From positions 103,935-167,934 of the IMG/VR virus record IMGVR_UViG_3300046642_001000: a stretch of DNA of 64,000 nt; one strand, given 5' to 3'. Below the pieces are notes generated by a model that was not told where the DNA came from, did not search any database, and was given only the letters and a program-made list of their open reading frames with translations. The position numbers were made by a program, and so were the translations under genes. Source of the DNA: a virus (taxonomy: Duplodnaviria; Heunggongvirae; Uroviricota; Caudoviricetes). Of the stretch, positions 1,594-44,028 are shown piece after piece; positions within the stretch are counted from its first letter, which is position 1, and each line of letters starts with the position of its first letter.

Positions 1594-1620
1594 GTTTTCC
1601 TTCCCTTTTCCTCCTGCACA

Positions 1621-1629
1621 TGATATTAT
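1621..1629 (+). promoter_or_regulatory. candidate extended -10 (TGaTATTAT) just upstream of the polymerase start
   Basis: TG-n-TATTAT lies 5 nt before the ATG at 1635, the same pattern as other promoters in this window. Confidence 0.3.
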
Positions 1630-1634
1630 ATGCA

Positions 1635-12521: not shown

Positions 12522-12543
12522 CCAGCAGGGAGGGACTCATGGC

Positions 12544-13068: not shown

Positions 13069-13200
13069 GCTCCTTTTTAGGGTTGACAGCGTCCTGAGAC
13101 GCCTATGTATTAGGTGCACATTTAGAGACCGGTGCACACACGGCGCGCGAAAGGCGCCAACAACTTTAGAGTCTCACAACCGAAAGGAGCAACACCCGCC

Positions 13201-14103: not shown

Positions 14104-14199
14104 TCCGACTCCCTAGTTAGCTTGTCCGTCGCTACCGGGTTTGGTCCGGTACGGTCTGTCAACTGTCAGGCCGATGGACTCTTTTTCTAAAGGAGTCAC

Positions 14200-14736
14200 A
14201 TGAGCTCTCTCTATCGTATCAAGGGAATGGGGCGTGGGTTCGATGGCCTCGTCATCGAGTCCAGCCACGTCATCACCAACGGCCTCCACGAGGTCGTCCG
14301 CATCATCAACCACAACGCCGTCTTCGGTGACCGGAATGTCTCGTTCCCGGTGCCGGAGCGCTGTCTCTTCATCAACGAAGAGTGCCTCGAGCCCTACGAC
14401 GAAGAGCTCCGCGAGTACGATTCCACGAACCCGAACGGCAAGTTCGTCTGCGAGAGTCGCCACCGGCGCCACGAGCTCGAAGTCGTGGTCGCAGAGTACG
14501 AGCGTTGCCTGACAGTCTCCGTGCTCGAACACTTGCACGAAGACGGAAAGTACAACGACACCCGCGGGCGGGACATCGTCCACACCCGCTACACCCAGAG
14601 TTTCAAGGATCGGCTCGACACGGTGAAGACCCTGATCGAGAACGAGATCCGCATGGGCGACCTCGACGACCTCATCTTCCATCTCAGGAAGCTGAAGGAG
14701 ATCGAGTTCGTCCCGGACGCTGGGGCAGAGGAATAG
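14200..14736 (+). CDS. hypothetical protein
   Basis: 178-aa ORF between the gp32-like and RecA-like genes; it sits where a recombination mediator would be expected, but this is untested. Confidence 0.5.
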   Translation: MSSLYRIKGMGRGFDGLVIESSHVITNGLHEVVRIINHNAVFGDRNVSFPVPERCLFINEECLEPYDEELREYDSTNPNGKFVCESRHRRHELEVVVAEYERCLTVSVLEHLHEDGKYNDTRGRDIVHTRYTQSFKDRLDTVKTLIENEIRMGDLDDLIFHLRKLKEIEFVPDAGAEE

Positions 14737-14739
14737 ACC

Positions 14740-21474: not shown

Positions 21475-22452
21475 ATGGCACTCCCGGTACCAGAGAATCT
21501 GGAAGACGCTGCCCTCGTGACCCACAAGGGTTGCATGGACGGCGCGGGATGCGCGATCATGTTCATGTTGGCGGGCGGGAAGCGTGAGAACATCCACTAC
21601 GTCGCCGCCGGCATGGTCGAGAGGTTCGTCAAGAAGGATCCCGTCTTCCAGTCGAACAAGTTCCTGATCTTCGCGGACGTCGGGCTCAACACCCCGAAGT
21701 ACGCCGAGGTCCTCGAGCGTCGTGGCAACCTGGTCCTCATCGACCACCACGACACGTCGCTCCACCTGCTGGGCCGTCACTGGGCGGAGATCGAAGAGAA
21801 GAACCAGCGCTGCGGCACGATGATGCTCAGGGACTACCTGATCAGGATCGACGACGAGAACAAGGTCGGATTCGGGCGGCGGCTCAAGAGCACGAGCTAC
21901 CGGATTTTCGCCGAGTCCATCGACGACCACGACCGCTGGCTACGCCAGAAGCTCCCGTTCTCGGAGGACCTGGCGACCTTCATGGTCTTCGTCGGCCAGC
22001 AGGACTTCATCACCCGCTTCGCCGACCCGAAGGACCGGATCTGTCAGAACATCGCGCTCGGTCGTGGCAAGGTCTACTTCACGCAGTTCGAGGACGACAT
22101 CATCAACATCCTCGACAGGCGTCGAGATGAGGCGATCGAGGAGGCCATGAAGAAGGTCACGGTGAAGGAGATCAAGCTCTCCGACGGGACCCAGGTGATC
22201 GGAGGGTTCGTCGTCACCAACGAGCCCAACATCTCTCTCCTCCTCAACCGGCTCCTGGAAGTCTACCCCCAGGTGCAGATGGCTGTCAGCGTCTGCATCG
22301 AGAAGGGGGCGGTCGGGATCCGCTCACGTGCCGGCGAGCTGGACGTTGGCCGGATAGCCGGCCTACTTGGTGGTGGCGGCCACAAAGGCGCCGCGGGGCA
22401 CAGGCTTCCGCAGGATCTGAGCGAAGTAATCCTGGAGCACATCTATGGCTGA
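21475..22452 (+). CDS. DHH-family phosphoesterase
   Basis: LIDHHDTS (DHH motif) and GGGGHKGAAG (DHHA1 GGGH motif); the ORF-table start at 21463 lies inside the -10, so the second ATG at 21475 is used. Confidence 0.7.
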   Translation: MALPVPENLEDAALVTHKGCMDGAGCAIMFMLAGGKRENIHYVAAGMVERFVKKDPVFQSNKFLIFADVGLNTPKYAEVLERRGNLVLIDHHDTSLHLLGRHWAEIEEKNQRCGTMMLRDYLIRIDDENKVGFGRRLKSTSYRIFAESIDDHDRWLRQKLPFSEDLATFMVFVGQQDFITRFADPKDRICQNIALGRGKVYFTQFEDDIINILDRRRDEAIEEAMKKVTVKEIKLSDGTQVIGGFVVTNEPNISLLLNRLLEVYPQVQMAVSVCIEKGAVGIRSRAGELDVGRIAGLLGGGGHKGAAGHRLPQDLSEVILEHIYG

Positions 22453-23398
22453 TATCCTCGGAGTCTCGTTCGACGACATCTTCGTCAAGCTCCTTCGGAA
22501 GCTGAGCCGGAACCCCGACTTCGTCTGCGCCCCGCGTGGACAGAAGATCAAGGAAGACCTGGCCCTCACGCTCGTCCTGACGGACCCGCGGTCCCGCTTC
22601 ATCCACAACCCGGCCCGGAAGTCGAACTACGGGTTCGCGGCCGGGGAGTTCCTCTGGTACTGGCAGGGTCGCCGGGATCTGGAGATGATGCTCTACTACA
22701 ACCGGCGGATGAAGGACTTCTCGGACGACGGCCACACGCTGAACTCGGCGTACGGCTACCGGCTCCGGGCGGGGTCCGACCTGCTGGACATGGACAGCCA
22801 GTGGAACAACTGCATCGCCACCCTGTCGGGGGACTCGGACAGTCGACGGGCGGTCATGACCATCTTCGCCCCGATCGACGCGGACGTGGCGGTGCACCAG
22901 GGATCGAAGGACGTGCCCTGCACCCTCTCGCTCCAGTTCTTCATCCGTGACGGCGCGCTCCACCTGCACGTCCACATGCGGTCCAACGACGCCATCTGGG
23001 GCCTGACGAATGACCTCTTCAGCTTCACGCTCTTCCAGGAGTGCATGTTCCTGGACCTGAAGCGGCAGAACCCGAAGTTCGCGGACCTGCGCCTCGGCCA
23101 GTACTACCACACGGCCGGCTCGCTCCACCTGTACGAGCGCCACTTCGAGATGGCCGAAGAGGTCATCAAGCTCTACGACGAGGGCTTCAGGTGCTACGAC
23201 GCCATGCCGGCCCTCACCAGCCTCGAGTCTCTGGACAAGCTGGGCTACGACGAGGAAGAGCTTCGCAAGCGTTACATCGACCAGATCCAGCTCTCCAAGT
23301 ACGAGGGCGGGGAGCTGTGGCTGGCCGACGAGTTGAATGTACACCGGCAAAAGAGGGACGCCGAAGAGTCCCTCAAGGGAGACAAGAAAGCAGGCTGA
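22445..23398 (+). CDS. thymidylate synthase (ThyA)-family protein, candidate pyrimidine hydroxymethylase
   Basis: VPCTLSLQFFIRDGALHLHVHMRSNDAIWGLTNDLFSFTLFQ aligns with the ThyA PCH..FQFYV...RS.D...G.PFNI core, but carries Thr where ThyA has His; RRAVMTIF matches the ThyA RR motif. Confidence 0.7.
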   Translation: MADILGVSFDDIFVKLLRKLSRNPDFVCAPRGQKIKEDLALTLVLTDPRSRFIHNPARKSNYGFAAGEFLWYWQGRRDLEMMLYYNRRMKDFSDDGHTLNSAYGYRLRAGSDLLDMDSQWNNCIATLSGDSDSRRAVMTIFAPIDADVAVHQGSKDVPCTLSLQFFIRDGALHLHVHMRSNDAIWGLTNDLFSFTLFQECMFLDLKRQNPKFADLRLGQYYHTAGSLHLYERHFEMAEEVIKLYDEGFRCYDAMPALTSLESLDKLGYDEEELRKRYIDQIQLSKYEGGELWLADELNVHRQKRDAEESLKGDKKAG

Positions 23399-23929: not shown

Positions 23930-24307
23930 ATGAGCGCACTTCCCCCCGACATGTTGTACGACGTCTTCAAGCGTCAAGAGGAGTTCATGGAACTCCTGCG
24001 CGTGAACGACAAGCTTCCCGAGTGGCCGGTGGACCTCACCACCAAGCCCGGCCAACGCCTCATCAAGGAGACGGCCTTCAACCTCTCCGACGAACTCCAC
24101 GAGGCGATGGCCACCCTCAAGAACAAGATGCACCGGCTGACCGACGATCGCACCCTCGACTTCGGTCACTACAAGGAAGAGCTCGGGGACGCCTTCGCGT
24201 TCTTCCTCGAGATCTGTCTCCTCAGCGGGATCGGGGCGGACGACCTCTACGAGGAGTACTGCCGCAAGAACAAGACCGTCAAGGAAAGACTGGCCAAGGG
24301 CTACTGA
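23930..24307 (+). CDS. MazG-like nucleoside triphosphate pyrophosphohydrolase
   Basis: EELGDAFAFFLEICLL EExGD motif in an all-alpha context. Confidence 0.6.
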   Translation: MSALPPDMLYDVFKRQEEFMELLRVNDKLPEWPVDLTTKPGQRLIKETAFNLSDELHEAMATLKNKMHRLTDDRTLDFGHYKEELGDAFAFFLEICLLSGIGADDLYEEYCRKNKTVKERLAKGY

Positions 24308-24525: not shown

Positions 24526-24784
24526 AGGGTACGAGTGCCACCTGACGTTCGACGCTGAACAGGCGAAGCTCGCCGAGGCGTCGTGTCCCTACGGCTGGAA
24601 GTTCAGCCGGATCGAGGGCGATCCCGTCCTCGGCCAACGACTCTACTGCTACTGGACGGCGTGGCACGGGTCGCAGGGAGTGATCGAAGACGAGATGCGC
24701 GGCGCCATCAGACTGGCCAATCGCAACGGTCTCCCCCTGGTCAGGGCGAAGATCGAACACATCATCTACGACCAGAGGTACTAA
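24518..24784 (+). CDS. hypothetical protein
   Basis: 88-aa ORF. Confidence 0.4.
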   Translation: MDRGYECHLTFDAEQAKLAEASCPYGWKFSRIEGDPVLGQRLYCYWTAWHGSQGVIEDEMRGAIRLANRNGLPLVRAKIEHIIYDQRY

Positions 24785-25338
24785 TGAGCGTAGTCATCAA
24801 TCTCTACGGTGGACCGGGCACCGGCAAGTCCACCTCGGCGGCCTACCTCTTCTACCTGCTGAAGTCGCAGGGGAAGAACGCCGAGCTCGTGCGGGAGTAC
24901 GTCAAGGACTGGGCGTGGGAGGGTCGCACGATCTCCACCTACGACCAGATCTACCTGCTCGGCAAGCAGGTCCGTCGGGAGAGCTTCCTCTACGGGAAGG
25001 TGGACATGATCGTCACCGACGCCCCGATCATGCTGGGCATCTACTACGCCAGCAAGTTCTCTCCCCTCTCGGTCAGTGAGGGAGTCCGGGCCATGACCCT
25101 CGCCTACTACCGGCAGGCGGCCGAGGACGGCCACCAGCACCACCACGTCTTCCTGGAGCGCACCAAGCCGTACAAGCAGGAGGGTCGGTTCCAGAACGAG
25201 GAGCAGGCCAAGCAGATCGACAACGGCGTCTATGGGATGCTGTCCGACCTGCGGATCCCGCTTGTCCGATGCGGGACGCAAAGAGAAGATCTAGACGAGC
25301 TACTTACCACTCTGAAGGTAAACAACCCCAAGGCTTAG
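24784..25338 (+). CDS. P-loop nucleotide or nucleoside kinase-like protein
   Basis: Walker A YGGPGTGKST near the N-terminus; 184 aa. Confidence 0.6.
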   Translation: MSVVINLYGGPGTGKSTSAAYLFYLLKSQGKNAELVREYVKDWAWEGRTISTYDQIYLLGKQVRRESFLYGKVDMIVTDAPIMLGIYYASKFSPLSVSEGVRAMTLAYYRQAAEDGHQHHHVFLERTKPYKQEGRFQNEEQAKQIDNGVYGMLSDLRIPLVRCGTQREDLDELLTTLKVNNPKA

Positions 25339-25354
25339 CCTGGAGACTCTCGCG

Positions 25355-26419
25355 ATGAAGCGCACGACAAAGCTCAGGATCTTCTACAAGTCCAAGTCCT
25401 CAGGACAGGGTCACAATCCCTACCACACGGGCGGACTGGCGGCGAACGCGCTGCACACCGTCGGCGTCCTCCGTCGGGAGGGTGTAGACGTAGACCTCGT
25501 CGCCGTGTCCAGCTTCGACGAGCTGGCGGCCTACCTTCGGGCCAACCCGGACATCACCCACGCCGTCATCGAGGCGGTCTGGGTCAAGGCGTCCGAGGTC
25601 GTCCTCCTGTCCCACGCCCACCCCCACCTCAAGATCGTGGTGCGGGCGCACTCCAAGATCGGGTTCCTCCAGGTCGAGCCCGAGGCCATCCCGGTCATCC
25701 GGGCCCTCATCGACCTCGGGGAAGAGTACCCGAACATCTCTTTCTCCAGCAACAACCAGGAGTTCTGCAACTCTCTCGGGGAAGTCTACGGCGACGTGCT
25801 CTACCTGCCGAACCTCTTCGACTGGGACGGGTCTCCCCCGAAGAAGCACAGCCACGATCGCATCCTCAGGCTGGCTTCTTTCGGTGCCACCCGGCTCCTG
25901 AAGCTCCACTCTTCCGCGGCACTGGCGGCCCTTCAGGTCGCCGTCCGCCTCGACCGGCAGCTGGAGTTCTACGTCAATACCGACAATACCCCGGGAGGTC
26001 ACAGCGTCCGGAACACGATGCGGAACCTCTTCGCTGGTCTCCCCTGGGCGAAGCTGATCGAGGTGAGCTGGCAGGACGCGGCCACCTTCCGGGAGACCAT
26101 CGCTGAGATGGACCTGGTCTTCCAGCTGTCCGCCACCGAGACCTTCTGCCTGGTGGCCGCGGACGCCGTGTCCAGCGGGGTGCCAGTGATCGTCGGAGAG
26201 GCCGTCAGCTGGGTGCCGGAAAGGTACCAGTCCAACATCGACGACACCTCGGAGGCGGCAACCGAGGCCATCCGCGCACTGGAGAGCAGCCACAAGACGG
26301 TCAAGGTGCAGCAGGAAGCCCTGAACGACTTCGTGGAGTCTTCGACTCGGATCTGGCGCACGTTCCTCGGGATGCCGAGCGGACGGGAAAGCCGTAAGAA
26401 CCTCTGGTGGATTTTCTAA
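25355..26419 (+). CDS. GT-B fold glycosyltransferase (GT1/GT4-like)
   Basis: C-terminal SATETFCLVAADAVSSGVPVIVGE resembles the GT4 E..G..EAMA.G.PVI donor-binding block. Confidence 0.55.
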   Translation: MKRTTKLRIFYKSKSSGQGHNPYHTGGLAANALHTVGVLRREGVDVDLVAVSSFDELAAYLRANPDITHAVIEAVWVKASEVVLLSHAHPHLKIVVRAHSKIGFLQVEPEAIPVIRALIDLGEEYPNISFSSNNQEFCNSLGEVYGDVLYLPNLFDWDGSPPKKHSHDRILRLASFGATRLLKLHSSAALAALQVAVRLDRQLEFYVNTDNTPGGHSVRNTMRNLFAGLPWAKLIEVSWQDAATFRETIAEMDLVFQLSATETFCLVAADAVSSGVPVIVGEAVSWVPERYQSNIDDTSEAATEAIRALESSHKTVKVQQEALNDFVESSTRIWRTFLGMPSGRESRKNLWWIF

Positions 26420-26432
26420 AAAGGAGCAGCAC

Positions 26433-26738
26433 ATGGGATTCAATCTCGAACTGAACGGCAACCGCGTCGCCATCGACCTCGACGAGGTGGGTGACCAGAC
26501 GGAGAGCGGCCTCTACGTCCCGCAGACCGTCTCTCAGGAGGGCCCGAAGAAGGGCAAGGTGGTCGCGGTCAGCGAGACCTACCTCGTGAACGGGGCGACG
26601 GTGACCAGCAAGTTCAAGCCCGGAGACGCGGTCCTCATCGACGCCCTCGGCGGCATGAAGGCGACCATCAACCGTCGTGAGTACCTCGTCGTGCGGAACG
26701 AGGACATCCTCGGCCGCTACCTGCCGGAGGAAGCGTGA
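26433..26738 (+). CDS. groES: GroES-like co-chaperonin
   Basis: about 100 aa; the GKVVAVSE ... GDAVLIDALGG ... EYLVVRNEDILG pattern matches Cpn10. Confidence 0.65.
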   Translation: MGFNLELNGNRVAIDLDEVGDQTESGLYVPQTVSQEGPKKGKVVAVSETYLVNGATVTSKFKPGDAVLIDALGGMKATINRREYLVVRNEDILGRYLPEEA

Positions 26739-29900: not shown

Positions 29901-30484
29901 ACGGGGAGCTGAAGATCGTCGACGAGAAGGTGTCAGGCGGTCCGAAGCTGGCCCGAGTCCAGTCGGTCAAGGGCCGTCCACGCTGGGACGAGCTCTACTC
30001 CCGGATCATGACGGATGAGAAGATCGAAGACTTCAAGCTCCACGAGAAGGTCTTCCTCGAGAACGAGCTCATGGAGTTCAGCCTCGCGGGTACTCCCTTC
30101 GAGATCCTCGACCGGAAGAAGAAGATCACCGCCATGTTCGATGGGGTGGTCTCCACGATGGAGGAGTTCCTCGGCGGCGAGGAAGAGATGACGATGCTCC
30201 CGGTCGTGGTGAAGGAGTGGAAGGAGAAGCCCCAGCGCAACGGGCAGATGTTCGCCTTCATCAAGTTCGCCACGGAAGACGGGGAGACGTTCGACGTCCC
30301 GGCCTTCGCGAACATGTGGAAGTGGATCTCACCCGTCATCCGCAAAGGCTCGGTCTACATCGCCACCTTCAACAGAGACATCGACGATGACCCCGAGCGC
30401 CTGAAGCTCGGCCGGCCGGGGTGGGCGCAGAGCCAGCATTCGACGATGCAGGCCTTCATCAATGTGGACGACATAAGTCTCTAG
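26957..30484 (+). CDS. dnaE: DNA polymerase III alpha subunit (DnaE-type)
   Basis: N-terminal PHP domain HNHSHFSVFDG ... ALTDHG; 1175 aa. Confidence 0.85.
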   Translation: MLKEFASFHNHSHFSVFDGLSLPEELLKAAKEKGLKSIALTDHGVTHGHADWYLMGKKMGVKTVFGVEAYVIHDLKEWKALKGEIDSQKRKGAKKEDNEYTADGDVVDPKALRRKGHLVILASNREGLSNLYQLTFKAHKFGFYQKPRMDKVMLQEHAKGLIATSACMGGVISKRLWDLKEGSCTWEDVKNEVLDYDRIFGRGRFYLELQFNEMDKEQNYINTSLVQLHKETGVPLTVTTDSHYATQAEWEPRELLHLMGWSKKTVADLPEQKLDSQVKQLFVKSPEEMWLTYEKLAGHCIDPKTAMEAFQGTLLIDSLIEDFEPDTHQRLPTLPFANPYKEMGMRAIAGLKKLGLAENEIYKDRLLFELGVIKQKGISNYFLVCQQIIEEAKKYMLVGPGRGSAAGSLVCWCLGITDLDPIKRDLLFERFLDIDRAELPDIDTDFEDPKAAKRMLQKMFGDDNVASLSSYGTFQIKGLLKDLGRVYGVDHNLINKLNRQIDKELKVLYVDQDKSTLVVKLDDIIRVSPSFNTFVEENPDLGSKIKTLYGRIRHVTRHAAGVIIGDNLPAETSCFVAKAKGKKTKDNEDGEDDTLAEEGEMVVQCSFTEGIVNKNLSAMGFVKMDILGLANLRVIRCALEHISSRTGKSFDELYEGLRSHNMDLDDIKVMKNIFWDGNFGAIFQFSNPGIRALAKRVKPDSFVDVSAICSLYRPGPLKGGYDKVYVTAKHGEIASLGHPVLDEILGSTKGCLVFQEQLMKVCSVFGKMTGKEVNRVRKVLLKKDKSKTEEFLKQENDVLYASFHKGCMEHGFPEDKTLKLWEDIKAFGGYAFNKSHSDAYSLTTMQTAHLATYYPLEFYTAALTKAQANAIQTLVADIQKTGIKILPVDINKSRAANIIEGLCIRLALGRVLGVGPSVIEKIVANQPYTSFQDFLDRSKANKTAVEALIQVGAFGSLPGCGNIKRLWEAYRKWTDNVLVTLDGELKIVDEKVSGGPKLARVQSVKGRPRWDELYSRIMTDEKIEDFKLHEKVFLENELMEFSLAGTPFEILDRKKKITAMFDGVVSTMEEFLGGEEEMTMLPVVVKEWKEKPQRNGQMFAFIKFATEDGETFDVPAFANMWKWISPVIRKGSVYIATFNRDIDDDPERLKLGRPGWAQSQHSTMQAFINVDDISL

Positions 30485-30496
30485 GGAGAAAACACC

Positions 30497-30793
30497 ATGA
30501 AGATCTTCATCGCACTCCTCGCCTCGATCCTCGCCGTGAGCGGCGTCACCCTCAAGCTCAAGCCGAAGGAAGAGCCGACGATCATCTCGGAGAAGCAGGT
30601 CGCCTCCTGCTCCCAGTTCGTGATCGAGAACCGCGTCCCGGCCAAGGTCACTCTCACCTTCAGCTGTGGTGCCGACGTCGATGCCCCCGAGCTGGACATG
30701 GACCCGCACACCCGCCTTCAGGTGGACATCTGCGACCCTCGGGAGTACGCCTCCGCGCCTCACTGTTTCATCATGACCTGGTCGAGGAAGTAG
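30497..30793 (+). CDS. small secreted protein
   Basis: signal peptide MKIFIALLASILAVSG; 98 aa with four Cys. Confidence 0.5.
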   Translation: MKIFIALLASILAVSGVTLKLKPKEEPTIISEKQVASCSQFVIENRVPAKVTLTFSCGADVDAPELDMDPHTRLQVDICDPREYASAPHCFIMTWSRK

Positions 30794-31096
30794 ATGACCA
30801 AGGACAACAACGGCCCGTACAGCATCGGGTCGACGTTCTGGCCTGGGCTCTCGAAGCTCGTCGAGGAGTGCGGCGAGGTCGTCCAGGTGGTGGGCAAGTT
30901 GCTTGGCACCGGGGGAGAGACCAAGCACTGGAACGTCCCCGACCTCAAACGCGCCCTAGAGGAGGAGATCGCCGACGTGATGGCGGCCTGCTCTTTCGTG
31001 ATCGAGGAGTGCCAGCTGGACGCGGGGTTCGTGTACACCCGCTACCAGATGAAGAAGGAACGCTTCAAAGAATGGCACAACGGCAGCAAACTGTGA
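30794..31096 (+). CDS. MazG-like NTP pyrophosphohydrolase, second paralogue
   Basis: LVEECGEVVQ and LEEEIADVMA motifs. Confidence 0.6.
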   Translation: MTKDNNGPYSIGSTFWPGLSKLVEECGEVVQVVGKLLGTGGETKHWNVPDLKRALEEEIADVMAACSFVIEECQLDAGFVYTRYQMKKERFKEWHNGSKL

Positions 31097-31102
31097 TACA
31101 AT
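31092..31102 (+). promoter_or_regulatory. extended -10 promoter TGTGATACAAT with the upstream gene's stop codon embedded
   Basis: the TGA of the MazG-like gene supplies the TG-n; a GGAGG Shine-Dalgarno-containing leader follows. Confidence 0.4.
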
Positions 31103-31121
31103 AACAATCCTGGAGGCAACA

Positions 31122-32951
31122 ATGACCATCGCAACCGTGCTCGCGTTCTGGTGGGTCGTACCCATCGTCCTGACCCTCGTGCTCTACAAGTTCGTGCTCC
31201 GGCTCTGCTTCGGGATGGTCTCCGTCTCGAAGGACGAGGTCGGCATCGTCGACAAGAAGTTCGCCCTCTTCGGCGCGAAGACCCTGCCCGACGGTGCCGT
31301 CATCGCCCTGAAGGGTGAGGCCGGCTTCCAGGCGGACACGCTGGCCCCTGGCGTCCACTTCGGCCTCTGGCCGTGGCAGTACGCGGTCACCCTCCAGAAG
31401 TTCGTGAACATCCCGGAGAACCACGTCGGGCTCATCGAGTCGCGAGGTGGCCAGGTTCCGGTGAACGGTCGAGTCCTCGCGCGAAAGGTCGAGTGTGACT
31501 CGTTCCAGAACGCCCGCGCCTTCCTCGAGGCAGGCGGAGAACGTGGTCCCCAGATCGCCATCATCACCCCCGGCACCTACCGCATCAACACGGTCCTCTT
31601 CTCCCTGAGGATCGTGGAGGCTCTCGAGATCCCCGACAACATGGTCGGCGTGGTCACCACCAAGGACGGCAAGCCCCTCTCGACCGGTGACATCGCCGGC
31701 GGAGAGTTCCCCGGCCACAACATGTACCAGGACGGCGAGGCCTTCATCACCGCCGGTGGCTACAAGGGCCTGCAGGAGCAGGTCATCCTGGCCGGCCTGT
31801 ACTACATCAACCCGCTCTTCGCCACCGTGGAAGTGAAGCCGATGACCGAGGTGCCCATCGCCAATGCTGGCGTGGTCATCGCCTACGTCGGTGGGGTCGG
31901 TGTGGACGTCACGGGTGAGTCCTTCAAGCACGGCAACCTCGTGGTCCGTGGGCAGAAGGGTGTGTGGGTCGAGCCGCTGGACCCGGGCAAGTACCCGATC
32001 AACCCGTACACCCACAAGGTCGAGGTCGTGCCGACGGCCAACGTCGTCCTCAACTGGGCGACCGGCAAGACCGAGGCGCACAAGCTGGACGCCAACCTGT
32101 CCACCATCACGGTGCGTAGCTCCGACGGCTTCAAGTTCAATCTGGACGTGAGCCAGATCATCCACATCCCCCGGACCGACGCCCCCAAGGTCATCGCCCG
32201 CTTTGGCAGCGTGGCCAACCTGGTCACCCAGGTCCTGGAGCCGACCATCGGCAACTACTTCAGGAACGCGGCCCAGGGCTCGGACGCCATCGCCTTCCTC
32301 AAGGAGCGCGAGAAGCGCCAGCAGGACGCCCGGGCTTCCATCAACAACGCCCTGAAGGAGTACAACGTCGGAGCGGTGGACACCCTCATCGGTGACATCA
32401 CCCCGCCGGACGCCCTCATGGAGACCCTGACGAAGCGGAAGATCGCCGAGCAGGAGAAGATCACGTTCGACACCCAGCGCATGGCCGAGGAGACCCGCAA
32501 GGAGTTCGAGCAGGCCAAGGCGATGGCGGCCACCCAGGCCAACGTCGTCGAGTCCCAGCGGAAGGTCCAGATCGCCGAGTTCGACGCCCAGTCGGCGGTC
32601 AAGAAGGCGGAAGGCGACGCCCAGTCCAAGACCATCAACGCCAAGGCGGATGCCGAGGTGCTCGTGGCCATCGGTGACGCCGAGGGCAAGAAGATCACGG
32701 CGGTCGGCACGGCCGAGGCCGAGGTCATCCAGAAGAAGACCGACGCGAACGGCAAGGCCAACTACGCCCTCATCGAGGTGGCACGCGCCCTCTCCTCGTC
32801 CGGTCACGCCCTGGTCCCGGAGATCATGGCCGGTGGCGGTCTCGACGGCAACAACCAGGGCGGCCTGGTGAACGTCCTCCTGGCCGGCCTCATCAAGGAC
32901 GGCCTCTCGAAGAACGGCAGCAACGGCGGCGGCACTCCCGAGTCCCACTAA
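31122..32951 (+). CDS. flotillin/SPFH (band 7) family membrane protein
   Basis: N-terminal transmembrane segment, an SPFH-like domain, and a long Ala/Glu-rich coiled coil (EAEVIQKKTDANGKANYALIEVARAL). Confidence 0.65.
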   Translation: MTIATVLAFWWVVPIVLTLVLYKFVLRLCFGMVSVSKDEVGIVDKKFALFGAKTLPDGAVIALKGEAGFQADTLAPGVHFGLWPWQYAVTLQKFVNIPENHVGLIESRGGQVPVNGRVLARKVECDSFQNARAFLEAGGERGPQIAIITPGTYRINTVLFSLRIVEALEIPDNMVGVVTTKDGKPLSTGDIAGGEFPGHNMYQDGEAFITAGGYKGLQEQVILAGLYYINPLFATVEVKPMTEVPIANAGVVIAYVGGVGVDVTGESFKHGNLVVRGQKGVWVEPLDPGKYPINPYTHKVEVVPTANVVLNWATGKTEAHKLDANLSTITVRSSDGFKFNLDVSQIIHIPRTDAPKVIARFGSVANLVTQVLEPTIGNYFRNAAQGSDAIAFLKEREKRQQDARASINNALKEYNVGAVDTLIGDITPPDALMETLTKRKIAEQEKITFDTQRMAEETRKEFEQAKAMAATQANVVESQRKVQIAEFDAQSAVKKAEGDAQSKTINAKADAEVLVAIGDAEGKKITAVGTAEAEVIQKKTDANGKANYALIEVARALSSSGHALVPEIMAGGGLDGNNQGGLVNVLLAGLIKDGLSKNGSNGGGTPESH

Positions 32952-32960
32952 GGAGCCAAC

Positions 32961-33185
32961 ATGGCCAAGATCAAGATCACCTGGATGAGTGACGGAGCAG
33001 GCGTCGATAGCATCCACGAGAACGGTCCCAAGATGGCCAAGGACAGTTATCTTGGCCACATCACCCGCATCGAGGACGAGTGGTTCTTCGTCCAGGCGGG
33101 AGTCCAGAAGCCGCACGGTCCCTACGGTTCGATGGCGGAAGTTCGCCGAGCAGCTCTCAAGATCGTCGATGGGGAGTACATCTAG
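32961..33185 (+). CDS. small hypothetical protein
   Basis: 74-aa ORF. Confidence 0.45.
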   Translation: MAKIKITWMSDGAGVDSIHENGPKMAKDSYLGHITRIEDEWFFVQAGVQKPHGPYGSMAEVRRAALKIVDGEYI

Positions 33186-33187
33186 GT

Positions 33188-34321
33188 ATGTCCATGCGCG
33201 TCGCTCTCGTCATTCCGACCATCCGGGAGAACTCCTTCAAGGACTTCATCTCCCGGTGGGAAGCCCTCGGTCTCTATCAGGCAGTCGACCTGATCGTGAT
33301 GGAGGACAACCCGAAGAAGACCTTCGACGTTTCCAGCGTCGACAAGCGGTGGGGAGCGGTCCACCTCTGCTGGGAAGACATCGAGGCTGACCTCGGGAAA
33401 GACAGCTGGATCATCCCCCGGCGTTCGGACACGGTCAGGAGCTACGCGTACTACTACGCCTGGAAGATGGGTTACGATTTCATCCTCACCCTCGACGACG
33501 ACTGCTACCCGCCGTCGAGGGATGTGGATGGACTTCAGTACGAGGACGGGGAGTCGTTCGTCGCCTCCCACCTCCAGTACCTGGAGAAGCGGACCCGGTG
33601 GTTCAACACCCTGAACAAGGTGAAGCCACGTGGCATCCCGTTCTACAACCTCGGTCGCAACGACAAGGTGATCGTCAATCACGGGCTCTGGACCAACGTG
33701 CTGGACTACGACGCCCCGTTCCAGCTGGCCAACCCGATCCCCGAGGAGTTCAGCTTCGACAACCGGATCGTGCCCAACGGCTCGTACTTCCCGATGTGCG
33801 GCATGAACGTCATGTGGCGCCGGGACGCGACGGTCCTCATGTACCACCTGCTCATGGGCCAGGTCCTCCACTCCAGAGAGAACAGCAAGATCTACACCCC
33901 GCCCCTGGGGACTCTCCTCACGGTCCCGGACTCTCCGGGCCTGGCGCTGGAGAAGTTGGCCTTCGACAGGTTCGGCGACATCTGGTGCGGCATCCTGATG
34001 AAGAAGATCGCGGACGTGAAGCGTCTTCAGGTCTCGACAGGCATGCCCTACATCCGGCACGAACGGGCCAGCAACCCGTTCGCCAACCTGAAGAAGGAAG
34101 CGAACGGCATCGAGGTCAACGAGAAGTTCTGGGAGCACGTCGACAAGGCTCAGATCTCTCCGGGGCTCGACCTGGATGGCTGCTATGGCGAGATGGGGCA
34201 ACACATCGGAGCCTATTCGGAGTACCCAGAACACGCCCAGTACTTCAGGCGGCTGGGGGAAGCGATGGTCATCTGGTCCAAGCTCTTCCGGCGCCACGGC
34301 GGCGGAACTTCGGGAGTCTGA
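33188..34321 (+). CDS. GT75-like glycosyltransferase (reversibly glycosylated polypeptide / UDP-arabinopyranose mutase family)
   Basis: IPTIR, TLDDDCYP (DxD), HGLWTNVLDYDAPFQL, PMCGMN, and STGMPYIRHERASNPFANLKKE aligning with plant RGP blocks. Confidence 0.7.
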   Translation: MSMRVALVIPTIRENSFKDFISRWEALGLYQAVDLIVMEDNPKKTFDVSSVDKRWGAVHLCWEDIEADLGKDSWIIPRRSDTVRSYAYYYAWKMGYDFILTLDDDCYPPSRDVDGLQYEDGESFVASHLQYLEKRTRWFNTLNKVKPRGIPFYNLGRNDKVIVNHGLWTNVLDYDAPFQLANPIPEEFSFDNRIVPNGSYFPMCGMNVMWRRDATVLMYHLLMGQVLHSRENSKIYTPPLGTLLTVPDSPGLALEKLAFDRFGDIWCGILMKKIADVKRLQVSTGMPYIRHERASNPFANLKKEANGIEVNEKFWEHVDKAQISPGLDLDGCYGEMGQHIGAYSEYPEHAQYFRRLGEAMVIWSKLFRRHGGGTSGV

Positions 34322-34322
34322 C

Positions 34323-34841
34323 ATGAAGCAAGACATCATCCTCTTCGAAGGACCGGACGGCGTGGGGAAGACCACCATCGCCAAGGCTCTCTCCAAAGAG
34401 ATCGGCGTCCCGTACTTCAAGATGAACTCGGAGCACGACAACTGGCGCAAGGGGAAGTTCAAGGAGGCGCTGGAGTTCGACCAGACGTACCTCACCCAAT
34501 TCCTCAAGCAGACCGGGTGCTCGGTCATCATCGACCGCGCCTGGCCGAGCGAGTGGGTATACTCCATGGTCTTCAAGAGGGAGACGAACTTCTCGGTCCT
34601 CTCTCAGCTGGACCGGGAGTGGAGTGAGCTCGGCGCCCGCATCATCATCCCGTGGCGTGAAGACTACACGAAGAACCGGGAGGACGAGCTGGTCCCGAAG
34701 AACAAGCTCAAAGAGATCCACGACGCCTACTTCGACTTCATGGAGTGGACGAACTGCGACGTCGTTCCAGTGAACGTGGACTACTACAAGAACGACACCA
34801 AGTCGGAGCTGGACTACATCATCCCGCTCCTCATGAGATAG
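34323..34841 (+). CDS. thymidylate/nucleotide-monophosphate kinase-like protein
   Basis: P-loop FEGPDGVGKTT typical of dTMP kinases. Confidence 0.65.
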   Translation: MKQDIILFEGPDGVGKTTIAKALSKEIGVPYFKMNSEHDNWRKGKFKEALEFDQTYLTQFLKQTGCSVIIDRAWPSEWVYSMVFKRETNFSVLSQLDREWSELGARIIIPWREDYTKNREDELVPKNKLKEIHDAYFDFMEWTNCDVVPVNVDYYKNDTKSELDYIIPLLMR

Positions 34842-34846
34842 GAGAC

Positions 34847-35326
34847 ATGATGAAGCGTCTAAGACTGGTCATCGTCGAGTCACCGTTCGCGGCCCGCAAG
34901 CCGGACGGCAGCTGGGATCCCGAGGGGGTGGAGGAGAACCTCCGCTACCTGCGGGCTGCCATGCACGACTGCCTGATCAAGGGAGAAGCGCCGTACGCCA
35001 GCCACGCCCTCTACACCCAGCCCGGCGTCCTCGACGACCAGGTCCCCGCGGAGCGGACCCTCGGCATCGAGGCAGGGTTCGCCTGGAACACCCAGGCCTC
35101 GGCTTCGATCTTCTTCGTCGACAAGGGCATCTCGTCAGGCATGAAGCTCGGGATCAAGAACGCCGTCGTCGACGGGCGGCCCATCGAGGTTCGCTCTCTC
35201 GCGGACTTCCGCACGGAAAGGTCGGAGGAAAATGAGGAAGAACTCAAGCGGCTCATCGGTGAGGCAGCGCTTGCGTACGCTCTTGAACGACGCAAAGCAG
35301 AAGAGGAGTGGCAAAATGACTTCTAG
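34847..35326 (+). CDS. hypothetical protein
   Basis: 159-aa ORF. Confidence 0.5.
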   Translation: MMKRLRLVIVESPFAARKPDGSWDPEGVEENLRYLRAAMHDCLIKGEAPYASHALYTQPGVLDDQVPAERTLGIEAGFAWNTQASASIFFVDKGISSGMKLGIKNAVVDGRPIEVRSLADFRTERSEENEEELKRLIGEAALAYALERRKAEEEWQNDF

Positions 35327-35528
35327 GGATTTCTGTTTCTGGCTGCAGGGGTTCTTCGAGATCCAGGATCCCAAGACCCTGGACGAGAAGCAGCTCGAGG
35401 CCGTGAAGAAGCATCTCTCTCTCGTGTTCATCCACGAGATCGACCCGTCCATGGGCGGCAAGAAGGAGCAGGACAAGCTCAACCAGGCGCACCACGGTCC
35501 TGGCAAAGACCTTCTCATGCGCTGCTAA
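35316..35528 (+). CDS. small hypothetical protein
   Basis: 70-aa ORF; GAGGAG Shine-Dalgarno 7 nt upstream. Confidence 0.4.
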   Translation: MTSRDFCFWLQGFFEIQDPKTLDEKQLEAVKKHLSLVFIHEIDPSMGGKKEQDKLNQAHHGPGKDLLMRC

Positions 35529-35540
35529 CTGTGGTATAAT
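35508..35540 (+). promoter_or_regulatory. promoter with a GACCTTCTC upstream element at the fixed 27-nt spacing to GTGGTATAAT
   Basis: same architecture as the GTCCTT-type promoters further downstream; the ATG follows 6 nt after the hexamer. Confidence 0.4.
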
Positions 35541-35546
35541 AGGTCT

Positions 35547-36758
35547 ATGCGAATCGGATATTCCTACTGGGGCTTCCTCGGAGATCACAAACGCGAGGGC
35601 GGTGAGGCCGTCTCCACACCGGACGGGAACGCCGCATACTCCTGGAGCATCATCTGGGAGCTTCTGCAACGGGACTACACGGTCTACACGATGCAGAAGG
35701 ATCGCGACCGCGAGGGCTGGATGAAGTATGGCCGGGACCTCTTCGCCTCGTTCAGTGAGGAGAAGCGGACCGAGGCCTACCTCGGCATCGAGCGGACCAA
35801 CGGGGTGGACCTCCCCGAGCTGGACGTCCTGCTGGTCGAGTGGAGGTTCCCGATCTTCGGACGGAACTGCTGCTCGTGGGAGGGCGCGCCCTGCTTCCCC
35901 AGCGACGCGAAGAGCGGCCAGCCCATGATGGCCTCGGGGTACGCCGACAAGAAGATCGAGCTCCAGCCCGACCTCTTCAGGCAGTACGAGATCCTGCGGT
36001 ACTATAAGGAGCGGGGCACCAAGCTCATCTTCTGGGACCTGGACCACAAGCTCCTGGGCCACGACGAGATCACCTGGTCTCCAGACGCGGTCTTCGAGAC
36101 TTCGAAGAAGCCGCTGCACCTGGTCACCAGGCGGACCAGCGTGGAGTTCCCCACCATCGTGGCGGACCTCATGCAGCACCCGACCCTCGAGGCGGACGAG
36201 AACCGGAAGCTGGTCTACATCGGCAGCCGGTACGAGCGGGACGACGTCATCACCAAGTGGCTGAAGCCCGTCTCGGACTCTTTCCCGGGGCAGGTGGAGT
36301 TCTGGGGCAACTGGATGCGGACGGTCGAAGAGTGCAAGAAGCTCTGGCCGAACGTGAGCTACAACGACCGGATCACCATGGCGGACTTCCGCCGGGTCTA
36401 CGGGTCGGCGGTGGCCTGTCCGATCCTGGCGAAGCAGAGCTACCTCGAGACAGGGTTCATCACCCCGCGTCCGTGGGAGGCGCTCATGTTCGGTACGATC
36501 CCGGTGGGGCTCGGCTCTCACCTCGGCATCTCTTCCTACGTCCAGCCGGGCCTCATCGCCGGCGACGGGTGGGACATGATCGAGGTGGTGAAGACCCTGA
36601 CCGGACTTCCCCTCAAGGAGCGGGACCGCATCCGCAGAGAGAACGTCGAACAGATCGAGCACATGGACGCCCGGTACTTCGTCGACAGAATCGAGGACGT
36701 GGCCAATGATGTGGTGGACATGGGTGAAGACCTACTTATCGAGAAAGAAGGAGCCTGA
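35547..36758 (+). CDS. putative glycosyltransferase
   Basis: 403 aa; position and size fit a nucleic-acid sugar transferase; no decisive motif, so the fold assignment is tentative. Confidence 0.4.
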   Translation: MRIGYSYWGFLGDHKREGGEAVSTPDGNAAYSWSIIWELLQRDYTVYTMQKDRDREGWMKYGRDLFASFSEEKRTEAYLGIERTNGVDLPELDVLLVEWRFPIFGRNCCSWEGAPCFPSDAKSGQPMMASGYADKKIELQPDLFRQYEILRYYKERGTKLIFWDLDHKLLGHDEITWSPDAVFETSKKPLHLVTRRTSVEFPTIVADLMQHPTLEADENRKLVYIGSRYERDDVITKWLKPVSDSFPGQVEFWGNWMRTVEECKKLWPNVSYNDRITMADFRRVYGSAVACPILAKQSYLETGFITPRPWEALMFGTIPVGLGSHLGISSYVQPGLIAGDGWDMIEVVKTLTGLPLKERDRIRRENVEQIEHMDARYFVDRIEDVANDVVDMGEDLLIEKEGA

Positions 36759-36759
36759 C

Positions 36760-37116
36760 ATGGCACGTAAGAAAGAATCCGTTCGCTTCCTCGTCACCGA
36801 CGGTGTGAAGCCGAACCGCGTAGGACCCGCCCGCGTCTTCAATCTGAAGGCGCCCATCGTCCTGAACATCCCTGCGGGGGCGTCGGTGAGGGTCCCTCTC
36901 GGGGTAAGCTGCAACTACCCCCTCCAGGTCTTCGGGACCCGTGGGTGTCTGCAGAGGGGTCTGACGGTGCTGGAGCCGAACGGTCCGACGTTGGACGCCG
37001 ACACGGACCTGGTCCTCATCGTGAAGAACACGGGCAAGGAGACCCAGCTCATCGAGCAGAGCGACGTCCTGGCCCGCGCCTTCGTGCTGGACAACAACGA
37101 CCTCGAGCTGGAGTGA
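36760..37116 (+). CDS. dUTPase/dCTP-deaminase-fold protein (tentative)
   Basis: PTLDADTDLVLIVKNTG resembles the dUTPase G.IDADYRGE..V.L.N motif; short at 118 aa. Confidence 0.4.
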   Translation: MARKKESVRFLVTDGVKPNRVGPARVFNLKAPIVLNIPAGASVRVPLGVSCNYPLQVFGTRGCLQRGLTVLEPNGPTLDADTDLVLIVKNTGKETQLIEQSDVLARAFVLDNNDLELE

Positions 37117-37280
37117 TGCCGACCTGGGCAGTCGTCGTGCTGCTGATCGTCTGGCTACTGGCGATCAACTACAGACAGTGGAGACCCTGATGGAGTTCTT
37201 CGTGATCATGGCCCTCATCGCCCTGCCCATCGCCGGTACCTTCTACGTTCGTAGACGGACCCGGAGACAGGTTCGCTTCT

Positions 37281-37700
37281 ATGAGTCCAACTGATCGGCC
37301 CACCTGGGACGACGTCTGGATGGGGCTGGCTCTCACGCTGTCCCAGCGGTCCACCTGCTCCCGGCTTCAGGTCGGCTGCGTGATCGTCACCGAGGACAAC
37401 CAGCAGGTCCTCGGGGTCGGCTACAACGGAGGTCCCAAGGGGATCTCCAACGACTGCCTCAGCCTGGAACCCGGCCTCTGTGGCCATCTCCACGCCGAGG
37501 TGAACGCCCTCATCAAGGCCAACTACACCAGCGTCGCGAAGAAGAAGATGTACGTGACCACCCAGCCCTGCTACCAGTGCGCCGTGGCCATCGTCAACGC
37601 GAACATCTCCGAGGTCGTCTACCAGAAGCCGTACCGGCTGACGGACGGTCTGGAACTGCTTGCCACAGCAGGTATCAAAATCCGTAAGCTGGACGGGTAA
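37281..37700 (+). CDS. dCMP deaminase
   Basis: zinc ligands HAEVNAL ... PCYQCA of the cytidine/dCMP deaminase family. Confidence 0.8.
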   Translation: MSPTDRPTWDDVWMGLALTLSQRSTCSRLQVGCVIVTEDNQQVLGVGYNGGPKGISNDCLSLEPGLCGHLHAEVNALIKANYTSVAKKKMYVTTQPCYQCAVAIVNANISEVVYQKPYRLTDGLELLATAGIKIRKLDG

Positions 37701-43161: not shown

Positions 43162-44028
43162 ATGGATCGCGTCGATGACATCTACGGCGACGGTATCGGA
43201 TACGTGCACCTTCTGGACAGCATGGGGGACGAGTTCACTCCCGCCGAGGACGCCCGCACCAGCACCAACAAGGGGCGCCTCGGTCCGGAGAAGGACGCGG
43301 CTCTCCAGGAACGTCTGACCAAGGACGCTCACACCTCCCCGTTCGAGGGGGTGGTGGTCAAGGTGGAGATCATGACCCCGCTCTTCGTCCTCAGGGAGCT
43401 GGACCGCCACCGCACGGTATCGAAGGTCGCCGACGAAGATGTGGAGATCATCACCCCTGAGGAGTCTGGCCGGAAGTGGTTCGCTCGCAACGAGATGAGC
43501 GGCCGCTACGTCCAAATGCCGAACCTCTACTACCACCCGGTCCAGGTTCGCGCCCAGAGCAAGACGAACATGCAGGGCGGCGGACCGATCCAACTGGTGG
43601 ACGACGCGGTGGCTCGGGAGTTCAAGGAGTCTGGCCAGGTTCTCTGTATGATGGCCCGGGACCTCTATGACCGGGCAGTCGCTGCCGGAGTCGAGAAGGG
43701 GATCGCCCGCATCTACAACACCCAGAACCAGTACACCAAGATCAGACTCACAGGAAGCCTCAAGAACTTCTGTGACTTCCTGTACCTCCGGCTACCAGGG
43801 GTGGTGCTGTGGGAGTGTCGGAGAGTCGCCGAGGCGCTCGAGGAGCTGCTGAAGGAAGCTTTCCCCTCTCCCATGGAGCAGTGGCGCAGGAACATCTACG
43901 AAACTGTCCGACTGACCAAGGCCGATCGAGCGGCGCTGGTCGAGATGATGGACGCCTTGGGAGAGTTCGGAGACGAGTCACTGCTTCCGGCAGAGTGGCA
44001 GTCGGCCCTAGCAAAGGTGAGGGGATAG
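43162..44028 (+). CDS. thyX: flavin-dependent thymidylate synthase (ThyX)
   Basis: ThyX signature LDRHRTVSKVADEDVE ... SGRY (RHR-x7-8-S ... SxRY). Confidence 0.75.
   Translation: MDRVDDIYGDGIGYVHLLDSMGDEFTPAEDARTSTNKGRLGPEKDAALQERLTKDAHTSPFEGVVVKVEIMTPLFVLRELDRHRTVSKVADEDVEIITPEESGRKWFARNEMSGRYVQMPNLYYHPVQVRAQSKTNMQGGGPIQLVDDAVAREFKESGQVLCMMARDLYDRAVAAGVEKGIARIYNTQNQYTKIRLTGSLKNFCDFLYLRLPGVVLWECRRVAEALEELLKEAFPSPMEQWRRNIYETVRLTKADRAALVEMMDALGEFGDESLLPAEWQSALAKVRG

Follow-up and report, generated by a model that had tools for sequence, protein, structure and literature searches.

Why would a bacteriophage encode a relative of the reversibly glycosylated polypeptides (RGPs), enzymes that plants use in making cell-wall arabinans? 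This question is raised by a gene in a 64,000-nucleotide stretch of DNA (the window) that covers positions 103,935 to 167,934 of the IMG/VR virus record IMGVR_UViG_3300046642_001000 and derives from an uncultured phage of approximately 200 kb in the class Caudoviricetes. The gene encodes a homologue of the pyranose-furanose mutases of glycosyltransferase family 75 (GT75), which act on nucleoside diphosphate (NDP)-sugars and include the plant RGPs, also known as UDP-arabinopyranose mutases (UAMs), and bacterial enzymes such as MtdL. We found that the protein has a complete GT75 active site and that its gene is kept, together with genes for a P-loop kinase and a GT-B fold glycosyltransferase, as a cassette near the gene of a predicted cytosine-nucleotide hydroxymethylase. 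On balance, we lean toward the view that the GT75 mutase supplies an NDP-furanose with which a DNA glycosyltransferase modifies 5-hydroxymethylcytosine (5hmC) in the phage DNA.

Family, active site and descent of the phage GT75 protein

The GT75 gene is a single, intact open reading frame (ORF) that ends with a TGA stop codon at 34319-34321 and starts either at ATG 33188, which is preceded by GGGGAG 11 nt upstream, or at ATG 33194, the start of an identical database protein (P0001). Because the GC content at third codon positions is 0.81 in this frame and hundreds of homologues exist, we regard it as the real coding frame; an overlapping antisense ORF of 464 amino acids (33182-34576) was rejected as a high-GC artefact. 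The original prediction had assigned the gene to the RGP family on the basis of its motifs and had proposed a search with the Pfam model, and the assignment is now confirmed far beyond chance. The Pfam model PF03214 (RGP) matched the protein with an E value of 2.5e-35 and 122.7 bits (gathering score 23.8), and a PDB search with a profile of 31 homologues returned GT75 structures only, including rice UAM2 (8cid, 1e-24) and MtdL (5e-21). An AlphaFold2 model (mean predicted local distance difference test score (pLDDT) 85.7) consisted of an N-terminal domain of GT-A fold, the family-specific core and the C-terminal helical domains. The top seven Foldseek matches of this model in the PDB were all MtdL or OsUAM2 (E values of about 1e-17 to 5e-19, template modelling (TM) scores of 0.67-0.76), while generic GT-A folds appeared only at E > 7e-6, approximately 11-12 orders of magnitude weaker.

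In an alignment with plant UAM sequences retrieved from the database, the phage protein was 33-35% identical to the plant enzymes over its full length, and all of the RGP motifs listed in the original prediction (VIPTIR, DDDC, HGLW.N..DYDAP.QL, FPMCGMN and TG.PYI.H.(K/R)ASNPF.NLKKE) were present. In particular, LVIPTIREN, TLDDDCYP, NHGLWTNVLDYDAPFQLA and FPMCGMNVMW of the phage correspond to IVIPTIRN, TIDDDCFV, SHGLWLNIPDYDAPTQLV and FPMCGMNLAF of the plant enzyme, respectively, and VSTGMPYIRHERASNPFANLKKEANGI is aligned with a 27-residue plant counterpart. The GT75 proteins of the clade of ~200-kb phages to which this phage belongs also carry an insertion of about 30 residues (residues ~225-255) that is absent from the plant, MtdL and L026 (see below) proteins; the model is partly of low confidence there, with pLDDT < 50 at residues 234-238.

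The structural study of MtdL showed that the DDD motif, together with H287, binds Mn2+ and the diphosphate, that R159 is both the nucleophile and the autoglycosylation site, that D260 is the base, and that D195 and R257 are also catalytic; the substitutions D109N, R159K, D195N, D260N and R257K abolished mutase activity, and inactive plant RGPs lack the equivalents of H287 and R257 (PMC9937993). In the phage protein, D101-D103 align with D109-111 of MtdL and H289 with H287, while R146 (within PRGIPF), D171, R259 and D262 align with R159, D195, R257 and D260 of MtdL and with the plant enzymes, in which R158 of OsUAM1 is the counterpart of the nucleophilic Arg. All of these residues are invariant in 31 homologues with 56-83% identity. 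Because the catalytic residues are conserved, we conclude that the phage protein is, as judged from its sequence, a functional GT75 enzyme, and the residue conservation supports the earlier assignment to the RGP family, the active site for mutase and autoglycosylation chemistry being complete.

The likeness to plant RGPs that had been pointed out at the level of motifs is real, but it is a family resemblance and not a sign of plant origin. The nearest non-phage relatives are proteins from bacterial metagenome-assembled genomes (MAGs) with 36-43% identity. Homologues with 28-43% identity, mostly 36-43%, were found on 60 MAG contigs from many bacterial phyla and one archaeal lineage, some of which are megabase-sized. 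In a rough neighbour-joining tree, the ~200-kb phage clade formed one group within the prokaryotic radiation and the plant sequences stood separately. These identity levels and the tree rule out a plant origin or horizontal transfer from plants, and the phage gene is best explained as an acquisition from the prokaryotic branch of the family. The metagenomic GT75 family comprises more than 1100 proteins, many of which are encoded on contigs of 185-207 kb, and some phage contigs with GT75 have been mis-binned into bacterial or archaeal MAGs. Megablast against GenBank phages gave no DNA match, and the sole protein match by tblastn was in an unannotated 595-kb metagenomic phage (37% identity), where the gene lies in an unrelated context.

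A conserved cassette near a predicted cytosine hydroxymethylase

In the window, the GT75 gene lies in a long series of genes on the + strand (Table 1). Their order is ribonucleotide reductase large subunit, DHH phosphoesterase, ThyA homologue, dUTPase_2-like nucleoside triphosphate (NTP) pyrophosphatase, AAA_28 kinase, GT4-like glycosyltransferase, GroES, DNA polymerase III alpha subunit (PolIIIalpha), MazG-like protein, Band-7 protein, GT75, P-loop kinase, DUF7768 protein, the glycosyltransferase orf403 and dCMP deaminase, and further downstream follow ThyX, an HD protein and NT5C. The kinase gene starts 1 nt past the GT75 stop codon, with a Shine-Dalgarno sequence within the 3' end of the GT75 gene; orf403 is located 1.2 kb downstream, and the second kinase and the GT4-like gene 7-8 kb upstream. 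The nucleotide kinases and glycosyltransferases previously noticed as neighbours are thus borne out by family searches, although the similarity of both kinases to thymidylate kinase is weak.

The ThyA homologue is predicted from its signature to be a cytosine-nucleotide hydroxymethylase rather than a thymidylate synthase or a 5-hydroxycytosine synthase. Its best PDB matches were the CMP 5-hydroxymethylase MilA (1e-41) and the T4 dCMP hydroxymethylase gp42 (7e-15), which ranked ahead of thymidylate synthases. Relative to E. coli ThyA, it keeps C146 and D169 and carries L143D and N177D, and the same residues were found in seven homologues. Hydroxymethylases are recognized by the catalytic Cys, N177D, L143D/E and a retained D169, and D169N identifies 5-hydroxycytosine synthases (Lee et al. 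2026, PMC13326640). A 5-hydroxycytosine synthase of the RB69 type was therefore ruled out, because D169 is retained in all eight ThyA-like proteins. Since ThyX would supply dTMP, the ThyA homologue would be left free for another reaction. The predicted structure of orf403 (pLDDT 87.8) has a GT-B fold and resembles the T4 beta- and alpha-glucosyltransferases, tll1591, PimA, BshA and a glycosyltransferase of phage HY126.

Relatives were compared in a clade of 10 IMG/VR contigs with GC contents of 34-65%, in which GT75, where present, is 48-100% and PolIIIalpha 45-100% identical; a scan with the single PolIIIalpha sequence returned only the phage itself, and a scan based on an alignment was required. 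The order PolIIIalpha-GT75-P-loop kinase-orf403 is kept in nine of the ten contigs, the kinase gene adjoining GT75 throughout (nine loci). A ThyA-like gene is found upstream of the cassette in every locus that reaches far enough, and in six of the ten contigs the downstream sequence covered also includes a dCMP deaminase gene. Most relatives have GT75 immediately or at most ~1.5 kb after PolIIIalpha; in the window, the two are separated by the MazG-like gene and a gene for a 609-amino-acid, membrane-anchored SPFH/Band-7 protein (31122-32951, + strand). The DUF7768 gene between the kinase and orf403 (34847-35326, + strand; Pfam 1.8e-23, PHROG 355 nucleoside 2-deoxyribosyltransferase 4e-14) occurs only on contigs identical to this phage and not in related clade members, as examined within 10-kb flanks.

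One relative (L108, IMGVR_UViG_3300045970_000175) lacks exactly the GT75, kinase and orf403 genes in the region (13390-14302) that corresponds to 30484-37700 of the window. It keeps PolIIIalpha, dCMP deaminase and a ThyA-like gene with the same signature; PolIIIalpha is directly followed by a short ORF, at the position of orf118 of the window, and then by the dCMP deaminase gene, and no replacement glycosyltransferase was found among the upstream ORFs of at least 100 amino acids. Because exactly these three genes are missing, the GT75-kinase-orf403 trio can be regarded as one separable cassette.

The same parts were also found in an unrelated phage with a Pol-I type polymerase (L026, IMGVR_UViG_3300020198_000024; 53 kb, GC 36%). 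Here, at 7740-12796, genes for dCMP deaminase, a ThyA-like protein, an NTP pyrophosphatase, a P-loop kinase, GT75, a uracil-DNA glycosylase (UDG)-superfamily protein and an orf403-like GT-B protein lie contiguously within 5 kb directly before the DNA polymerase gene. The ThyA-like protein has the same signature, the orf403 homologue is 39% identical, and the pyrophosphatase gene between the ThyA-like gene and the kinase is a homologue of the dUTPase_2-like gene of the window. The UDG-superfamily protein inside this cassette matches Pfam UDG at 1.3e-15. That these parts recur in two phage backbones argues more strongly than any other observation for GT75 and orf403 acting on what the ThyA homologue produces, i.e., on modified cytosine in DNA. 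The glycosylation of DNA bases suggested in the original prediction is likewise pointed to by the signature of the ThyA homologue, the dCMP deaminase, the NTP pyrophosphatases, ThyX and the GT-B protein resembling T4 beta-glucosyltransferase; the same conserved context favours DNA bases over a protein, the other target then considered, which we keep as a minority alternative.

We propose the following pathway. The ThyA homologue would make 5-hydroxymethyl-dCMP before replication, as in T4, and the P-loop kinase or kinases together with the host nucleoside diphosphate kinase would raise it to the triphosphate. The dUTPase_2-like and MazG-like pyrophosphatases would deplete dCTP, the dCMP deaminase and ThyX would supply dTMP, and the DNA polymerase would incorporate 5hmC. 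In a divalent-metal-dependent reaction, GT75 would convert a host NDP-pyranose to the corresponding NDP-furanose: with Mn2+ and the diphosphate held by the DDD motif and H289, R146 would attack the anomeric carbon, and the ring would open and reclose as a furanose with the help of D262 (as base), D171 and R259. The putative DNA glycosyltransferase orf403 would then transfer the furanose onto the hydroxyl of 5hmC in phage DNA, and the GT4-like enzyme, which is confined to this phage and its closest relative, would possibly add a further sugar. The outcome would be furanosyl-hmC DNA resistant to host nucleases. That this product represents an undescribed hypermodification, 5hmC O-glycosylated with galactofuranose (Galf), L-arabinofuranose (L-Araf) or L-fucofuranose (L-Fucf) by way of a GT75-made donor, shared by a widespread clade of uncultured ~200-kb phages with one or more unrelated small phages, is a serious prospect that we place a little short of even.

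Alternative acceptors and sugars

Several observations weigh against this DNA-directed pathway. Most other viral contigs with a GT75 homologue have no ThyA neighbour and instead carry a 4,6-dehydratase, GT-A enzymes, methyltransferases or sulfotransferase-like genes, so that phage GT75s clearly also serve non-DNA glycosylation. Against orf403, T4 beta-glucosyltransferase scores no higher than PimA, WlaC and BshA do, and the GT-B fold does not discriminate between DNA and other acceptors; orf403 itself received no sequence-level annotation and has no homologue in GenBank phages. The kinase gene is missing from L108 along with GT75 and orf403, which makes the role of its product as a kinase of 5-hydroxymethyl-dCMP uncertain. 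Genes for an NDP-sugar precursor (epimerase, dehydratase or pyrophosphorylase) were not found in the window. The substitution S91D in AtRGP2 abolished the formation of UDP-Galf (PMC9937993) and the phage protein has Asp at this position, so UDP-Gal is not a safe guess for its substrate. Lastly, cultured phages are all distant, PolIIIalpha being at most 30% identical to that of any GenBank phage.

We therefore weighed whether an active GT75 mutase might provide a furanose for a target other than DNA, such as virion proteins, host envelope glycans (in auxiliary metabolism or superinfection exclusion) or a small molecule, in which case the closeness to nucleotide-metabolism genes would merely reflect shared early or middle expression. 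The surroundings of other GT75 genes are in keeping with such a role, and in soil-virome papers viral GT75 genes are counted among the cell-wall auxiliary metabolic genes. On the bacterial MAG contigs, the neighbours are GT2, GT4, short-chain dehydrogenase/reductase (SDR) epimerase/dehydratase, DegT aminotransferase and flippase genes, i.e., surface-glycan clusters. Yet none of the 60 MAG loci has a homologue of orf403 or the nucleotide-metabolism genes of the phage, and the nucleotide-metabolism context is thus phage-specific. Moreover, the cassette sits in the replication and nucleotide module of the clade and not in the structural module, and GT75 and orf403 recur in the compact cassette of dCMP deaminase, hydroxymethylase, NTP pyrophosphatase, kinase and UDG genes by the DNA polymerase of an unrelated phage. 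With these points on both sides, we judge a non-DNA target unlikely for this phage, yet worth keeping in view.

The other GT75 loci are of interest in their own right. In a group of small phages (IMG/VR contigs L034-L038 and L041, GC 36-40%), at ~9000-16000 of each locus, the GT75 homologue lies between a gene for an RmlB-like NDP-hexose 4,6-dehydratase and genes for a GT-A-like protein and two proteins resembling methyltransferases. The terminase and portal genes come immediately after this set, and ThyA is absent; this arrangement suggests a 6-deoxyhexofuranose pathway. In the 595-kb metagenomic phage mentioned above (L103, LR756511.1, 193984-218910), the GT75 homologue has sulfotransferase-like P-loop neighbours and is also flanked by a methyltransferase-like protein and a 456-amino-acid protein rich in Ser, Thr and Gly, which looks like glycan or protein rather than DNA modification. 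On Planctomycetota MAG contigs (L045, L047, L059, L060, L063, L066, L067 and L073), an ORF of 1100-1430 amino acids with several GT2-like modules and a GT4-like module adjoins or overlaps the GT75 match, and GT75 may be fused or translationally linked to this multi-glycosyltransferase ORF.

The sugar is a separate matter from the acceptor. Characterised GT75 enzymes act on UDP-L-Ara and UDP-D-Gal in plants and on GDP-L-Fuc and GDP-L-Gal in actinomycetes (PMC9937993). The pocket that governs nucleotide and sugar preference is a hybrid in the phage protein. As in plants, it has P at MtdL position 13 and G-M at 228/229, in place of T13 and S228-Q229 of MtdL. Like the GDP-sugar enzyme MtdL, it has N at position 42 and S-D at 86/87, and it shares R at 289 as well; the UDP-selective plant RGP pocket combines P13, D42, D86 and S87, at which the phage has P, N, S and D, so that the plant D-S pair is swapped and D42 is replaced by N in a loop one residue shorter. 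These N-terminal equivalences come from a MAFFT alignment of the phage protein with plant sequences only, and the pocket is not decisive for the substrate. Candidate sugars would be Galf, L-Araf or L-Fucf, with UDP-D-Gal, UDP-L-Ara or GDP-L-Fuc/GDP-L-Gal as donors. The GC range of the clade indicates diverse hosts, which makes a ubiquitous host donor such as UDP-Gal the most parsimonious guess.

The original prediction favoured a UDP-L-arabinopyranose mutase like the plant UAMs, with arabinosyl or other pentosyl groups on DNA or protein. The part of it that concerns DNA bases agrees with the context, but the pentose is not borne out. It would fit the motif-for-motif likeness to plant class-1 UAMs, including the residues at 13 and 228/229, and arabinofuranosylated cytosine does exist in phages RB69 and DLP3. 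The MtdL-like residues at 42 and 86/87 speak against it, however, as does the conversion of UDP-Gal, GDP-L-Fuc and GDP-L-Gal by other members of the family. The window yielded neither a UDP-Xyl synthase nor a 4-epimerase for UDP-L-Ara, and no SDR, epimerase or NTP-transferase family match that could account for UDP-Ara supply occurred among its genes, which represent 64 kb of a ~200-kb phage. RB69 and DLP3, for their part, make UDP-D-Araf from ribulose-5-phosphate without GT75 and attach the sugar to 5-hydroxycytosine from D169N ThyA homologues, whereas D169 is retained here; matches to a sugar isomerase (SIS) family arabinose-5-phosphate isomerase or a pyrophosphorylase (NTP-transferase) were absent among the genes of the window. 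We consider the arabinosyl proposal improbable.

That GT75 serves mainly as a glycosyltransferase, by self-glycosylation, by protein arginine glycosylation as in EarP and NleB or by direct sugar transfer to DNA, is very improbable: GT75 proteins do autoglycosylate a conserved Arg with several UDP-sugars, AtRGP2 with UDP-Glc shows only the transferase/hydrolysis reaction (PMC9937993) and the N-terminal domain has the GT-A fold, but no member of the family is known to act on another macromolecule in this way, the full set of mutase residues is strictly conserved, and GT75 is always inherited along with a dedicated GT-B transferase, which fits the role of a donor supplier.

Comparison with known systems and implications

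The coordinates of the GT75 gene and its associated genes are listed in Table 1. The GT75 gene and orf403 are not represented by any model in PHROGs or NCBIfam.

Table 1. Positions of the GT75 gene and of genes linked to nucleotide metabolism or glycosylation in the window
Feature	Position	Strand	Length	Family matches
ThyA homologue with the cytosine-nucleotide 5-hydroxymethylase signature, predicted 5-hydroxymethyl-dCMP synthase	22445..23398	+		
All-alpha NTP pyrophosphohydrolase (dUTPase_2-like), candidate dCTPase/dUTPase	23930..24307	+	125 aa	Pfam dUTPase_2 1e-4 (at cutoff); PHROG 12184 nucleotide pyrophosphohydrolase 5e-13
Second P-loop kinase (AAA_28)	24784..25338	+	184 aa	Pfam AAA_28 8.6e-10; PHROG 2107 'thymidylate kinase' 4.4e-10
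GT4-like glycosyltransferase	25355..26419	+	354 aa	Pfam GT4-conflict 2.5e-6, Glycos_transf_1 1e-3; PHROG 2170
MazG-like NTP pyrophosphohydrolase	30794..31096	+	100 aa	Pfam MazG 2.5e-5
GT75 (RGP/UAM/MtdL family) NDP-sugar pyranose-furanose mutase homologue	33188..34321	+	377 aa, or 375 aa from 33194	
P-loop kinase, thymidylate/dNMP-kinase-like	34323..34841	+	172 aa	PHROG 761 'thymidylate kinase' 3.9e-13; weak Pfam dNK and Thymidylate_kin
GT-B fold glycosyltransferase orf403, candidate DNA glycosyltransferase	35547..36758	+	403 aa	
dCMP deaminase	37281..37700	+		Pfam dCMP_cyt_deam_1 (precomputed)
ThyX flavin-dependent thymidylate synthase	43162..44028	+		Pfam Thy1 (precomputed)

The AAA_28 kinase and the GT4-like gene (24784-26419) are shared only with the closest relative (L008/L105), and this pair mirrors the pairing of kinase and GT-B genes in the GT75 cassette. 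Elsewhere, the window encodes a GroES (Cpn10) homologue (26433-26738, + strand) and, besides PolIIIalpha, a protein with a family-A DNA polymerase domain (1395-3074, + strand; Pfam DNA_pol_A 5e-22). A giant ORF of 2301 amino acids (5616-12521, + strand) has a domain like nicotinamide mononucleotide (NMN) adenylyltransferase (NMNAT) at residues ~1503-1725 (PHROG cytidyltransferase 2e-18; PDB NMNAT 7e-7) and weak kinase-like matches at residues ~1142-1433; this very large multidomain protein may function in NAD+ salvage or counter-defence. Its kinase-like and nucleotidyltransferase domains were ruled out as a sugar activator, the latter, which is the only nucleotidyltransferase domain in the window, matching NMN adenylyltransferases.

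Among characterised proteins, the bacterial GDP-L-galactose/GDP-L-fucose pyranose-furanose mutases MtdL and Hyg20 (PDB 7XPR and 7YUA) have the same fold as the phage GT75 (Foldseek E values of ~5e-19, TM scores of 0.67-0.69) and the same catalytic set. They share with it a prokaryotic origin and, if our proposal holds, the position of an NDP-furanose supplier to a separate transferase, but they are only ~28% identical over the aligned part, belong to antibiotic biosynthesis clusters rather than to phage nucleotide metabolism, and lack the insertion of the phage clade. The plant class-1 enzymes (OsUAM1 and AtRGP1-3; EC 5.4.99.30), which also make UDP-Galf, resemble the phage protein in the Pfam RGP domain, the long motifs, the DDD motif and the self-glycosylated Arg; they serve cell-wall arabinans, in contrast to the presumed decoration of DNA in the phage, and the phage sequences are not nested with them in the rough tree.

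A parallel known from another phage involves a different mutase. Rhizobium phage RL38J1 (Pootjesviridae) encodes an FAD-type UDP-galactopyranose mutase in a cytosine-glycosylation (hexosylation) cluster (Lee et al., NAR 2026, PMC13326640), and RB69 and DLP3 DNA carries arabinofuranose (PMC13326640). RL38J1 brings together a ThyA homologue whose product is a hydroxylated cytosine nucleotide, a kinase similar to thymidylate kinase, DNA glycosyltransferases of GT-B/GT4-like type and an NDP-sugar mutase, all of which have predicted counterparts in the phage studied here; one of its glycosyltransferases matches tll1591 (7fg9), as orf403 does. However, its mutase is an FAD-dependent Glf with a fold unrelated to GT75, and its ThyA homologue is of the D169N type, which leads to 5-hydroxycytosine with an ether-linked sugar, while 5-hydroxymethylcytosine is predicted here. 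The T4 system (gp42, gp1, gp56, cd, td and alpha-gt/beta-gt) follows the logic proposed here, in which dCMP is modified before replication, dCTP is excluded, and sugars are transferred by GT-B enzymes after replication, but T4 takes UDP-glucose straight from its host and has no need of a mutase. A furanose on DNA is known from RB69 and DLP3, which obtain UDP-D-Araf through an isomerase, a kinase/pyrophosphorylase and a phosphatase. A GT75 enzyme is used neither by these two phages nor by T4. Our literature searches turned up no work that connects GT75/RGP with the modification of phage DNA, and viral GT75 was mentioned only among cell-wall auxiliary metabolic genes of soil viromes. The GT75 family and the logic of phage cytosine glycosylation are known already; what is new is the portable cassette formed by GT75, an unannotated GT-B family and a hydroxymethylase core.

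Glycosylated cytosines are a main means by which phages escape restriction, CRISPR and other nuclease defences, and whether a given type IV enzyme, glycosylase or sequencing or engineering tool works on such DNA depends on the chemistry of the sugar. If the proposed pathway is correct, this would be the first use of the RGP family in nucleic-acid modification, and phages would have a third way to furanosylated DNA, independent of the ribulose-5-phosphate-to-UDP-Araf route of RB69 and DLP3 and of the FAD-dependent Glf of Pootjesviridae. It would add an enzyme family, GT75, and probably a new base, furanosyl-hmC, to the catalogue of phage DNA modifications. The practice of scoring viral GT75 genes in viromes as "cell-wall/carbon-cycling" auxiliary metabolic genes would have to be corrected. 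The four to five genes involved would form a defined set that could be reconstituted in E. coli without phage culture. GT75 mutases are sought as biocatalysts for NDP-furanoses, and the large and diverse phage clade would widen the pool of available enzymes. For the phages themselves, sugar decoration would be a portable three-gene cassette set on a conserved hmC-synthesis core, from which it is absent in one natural relative.

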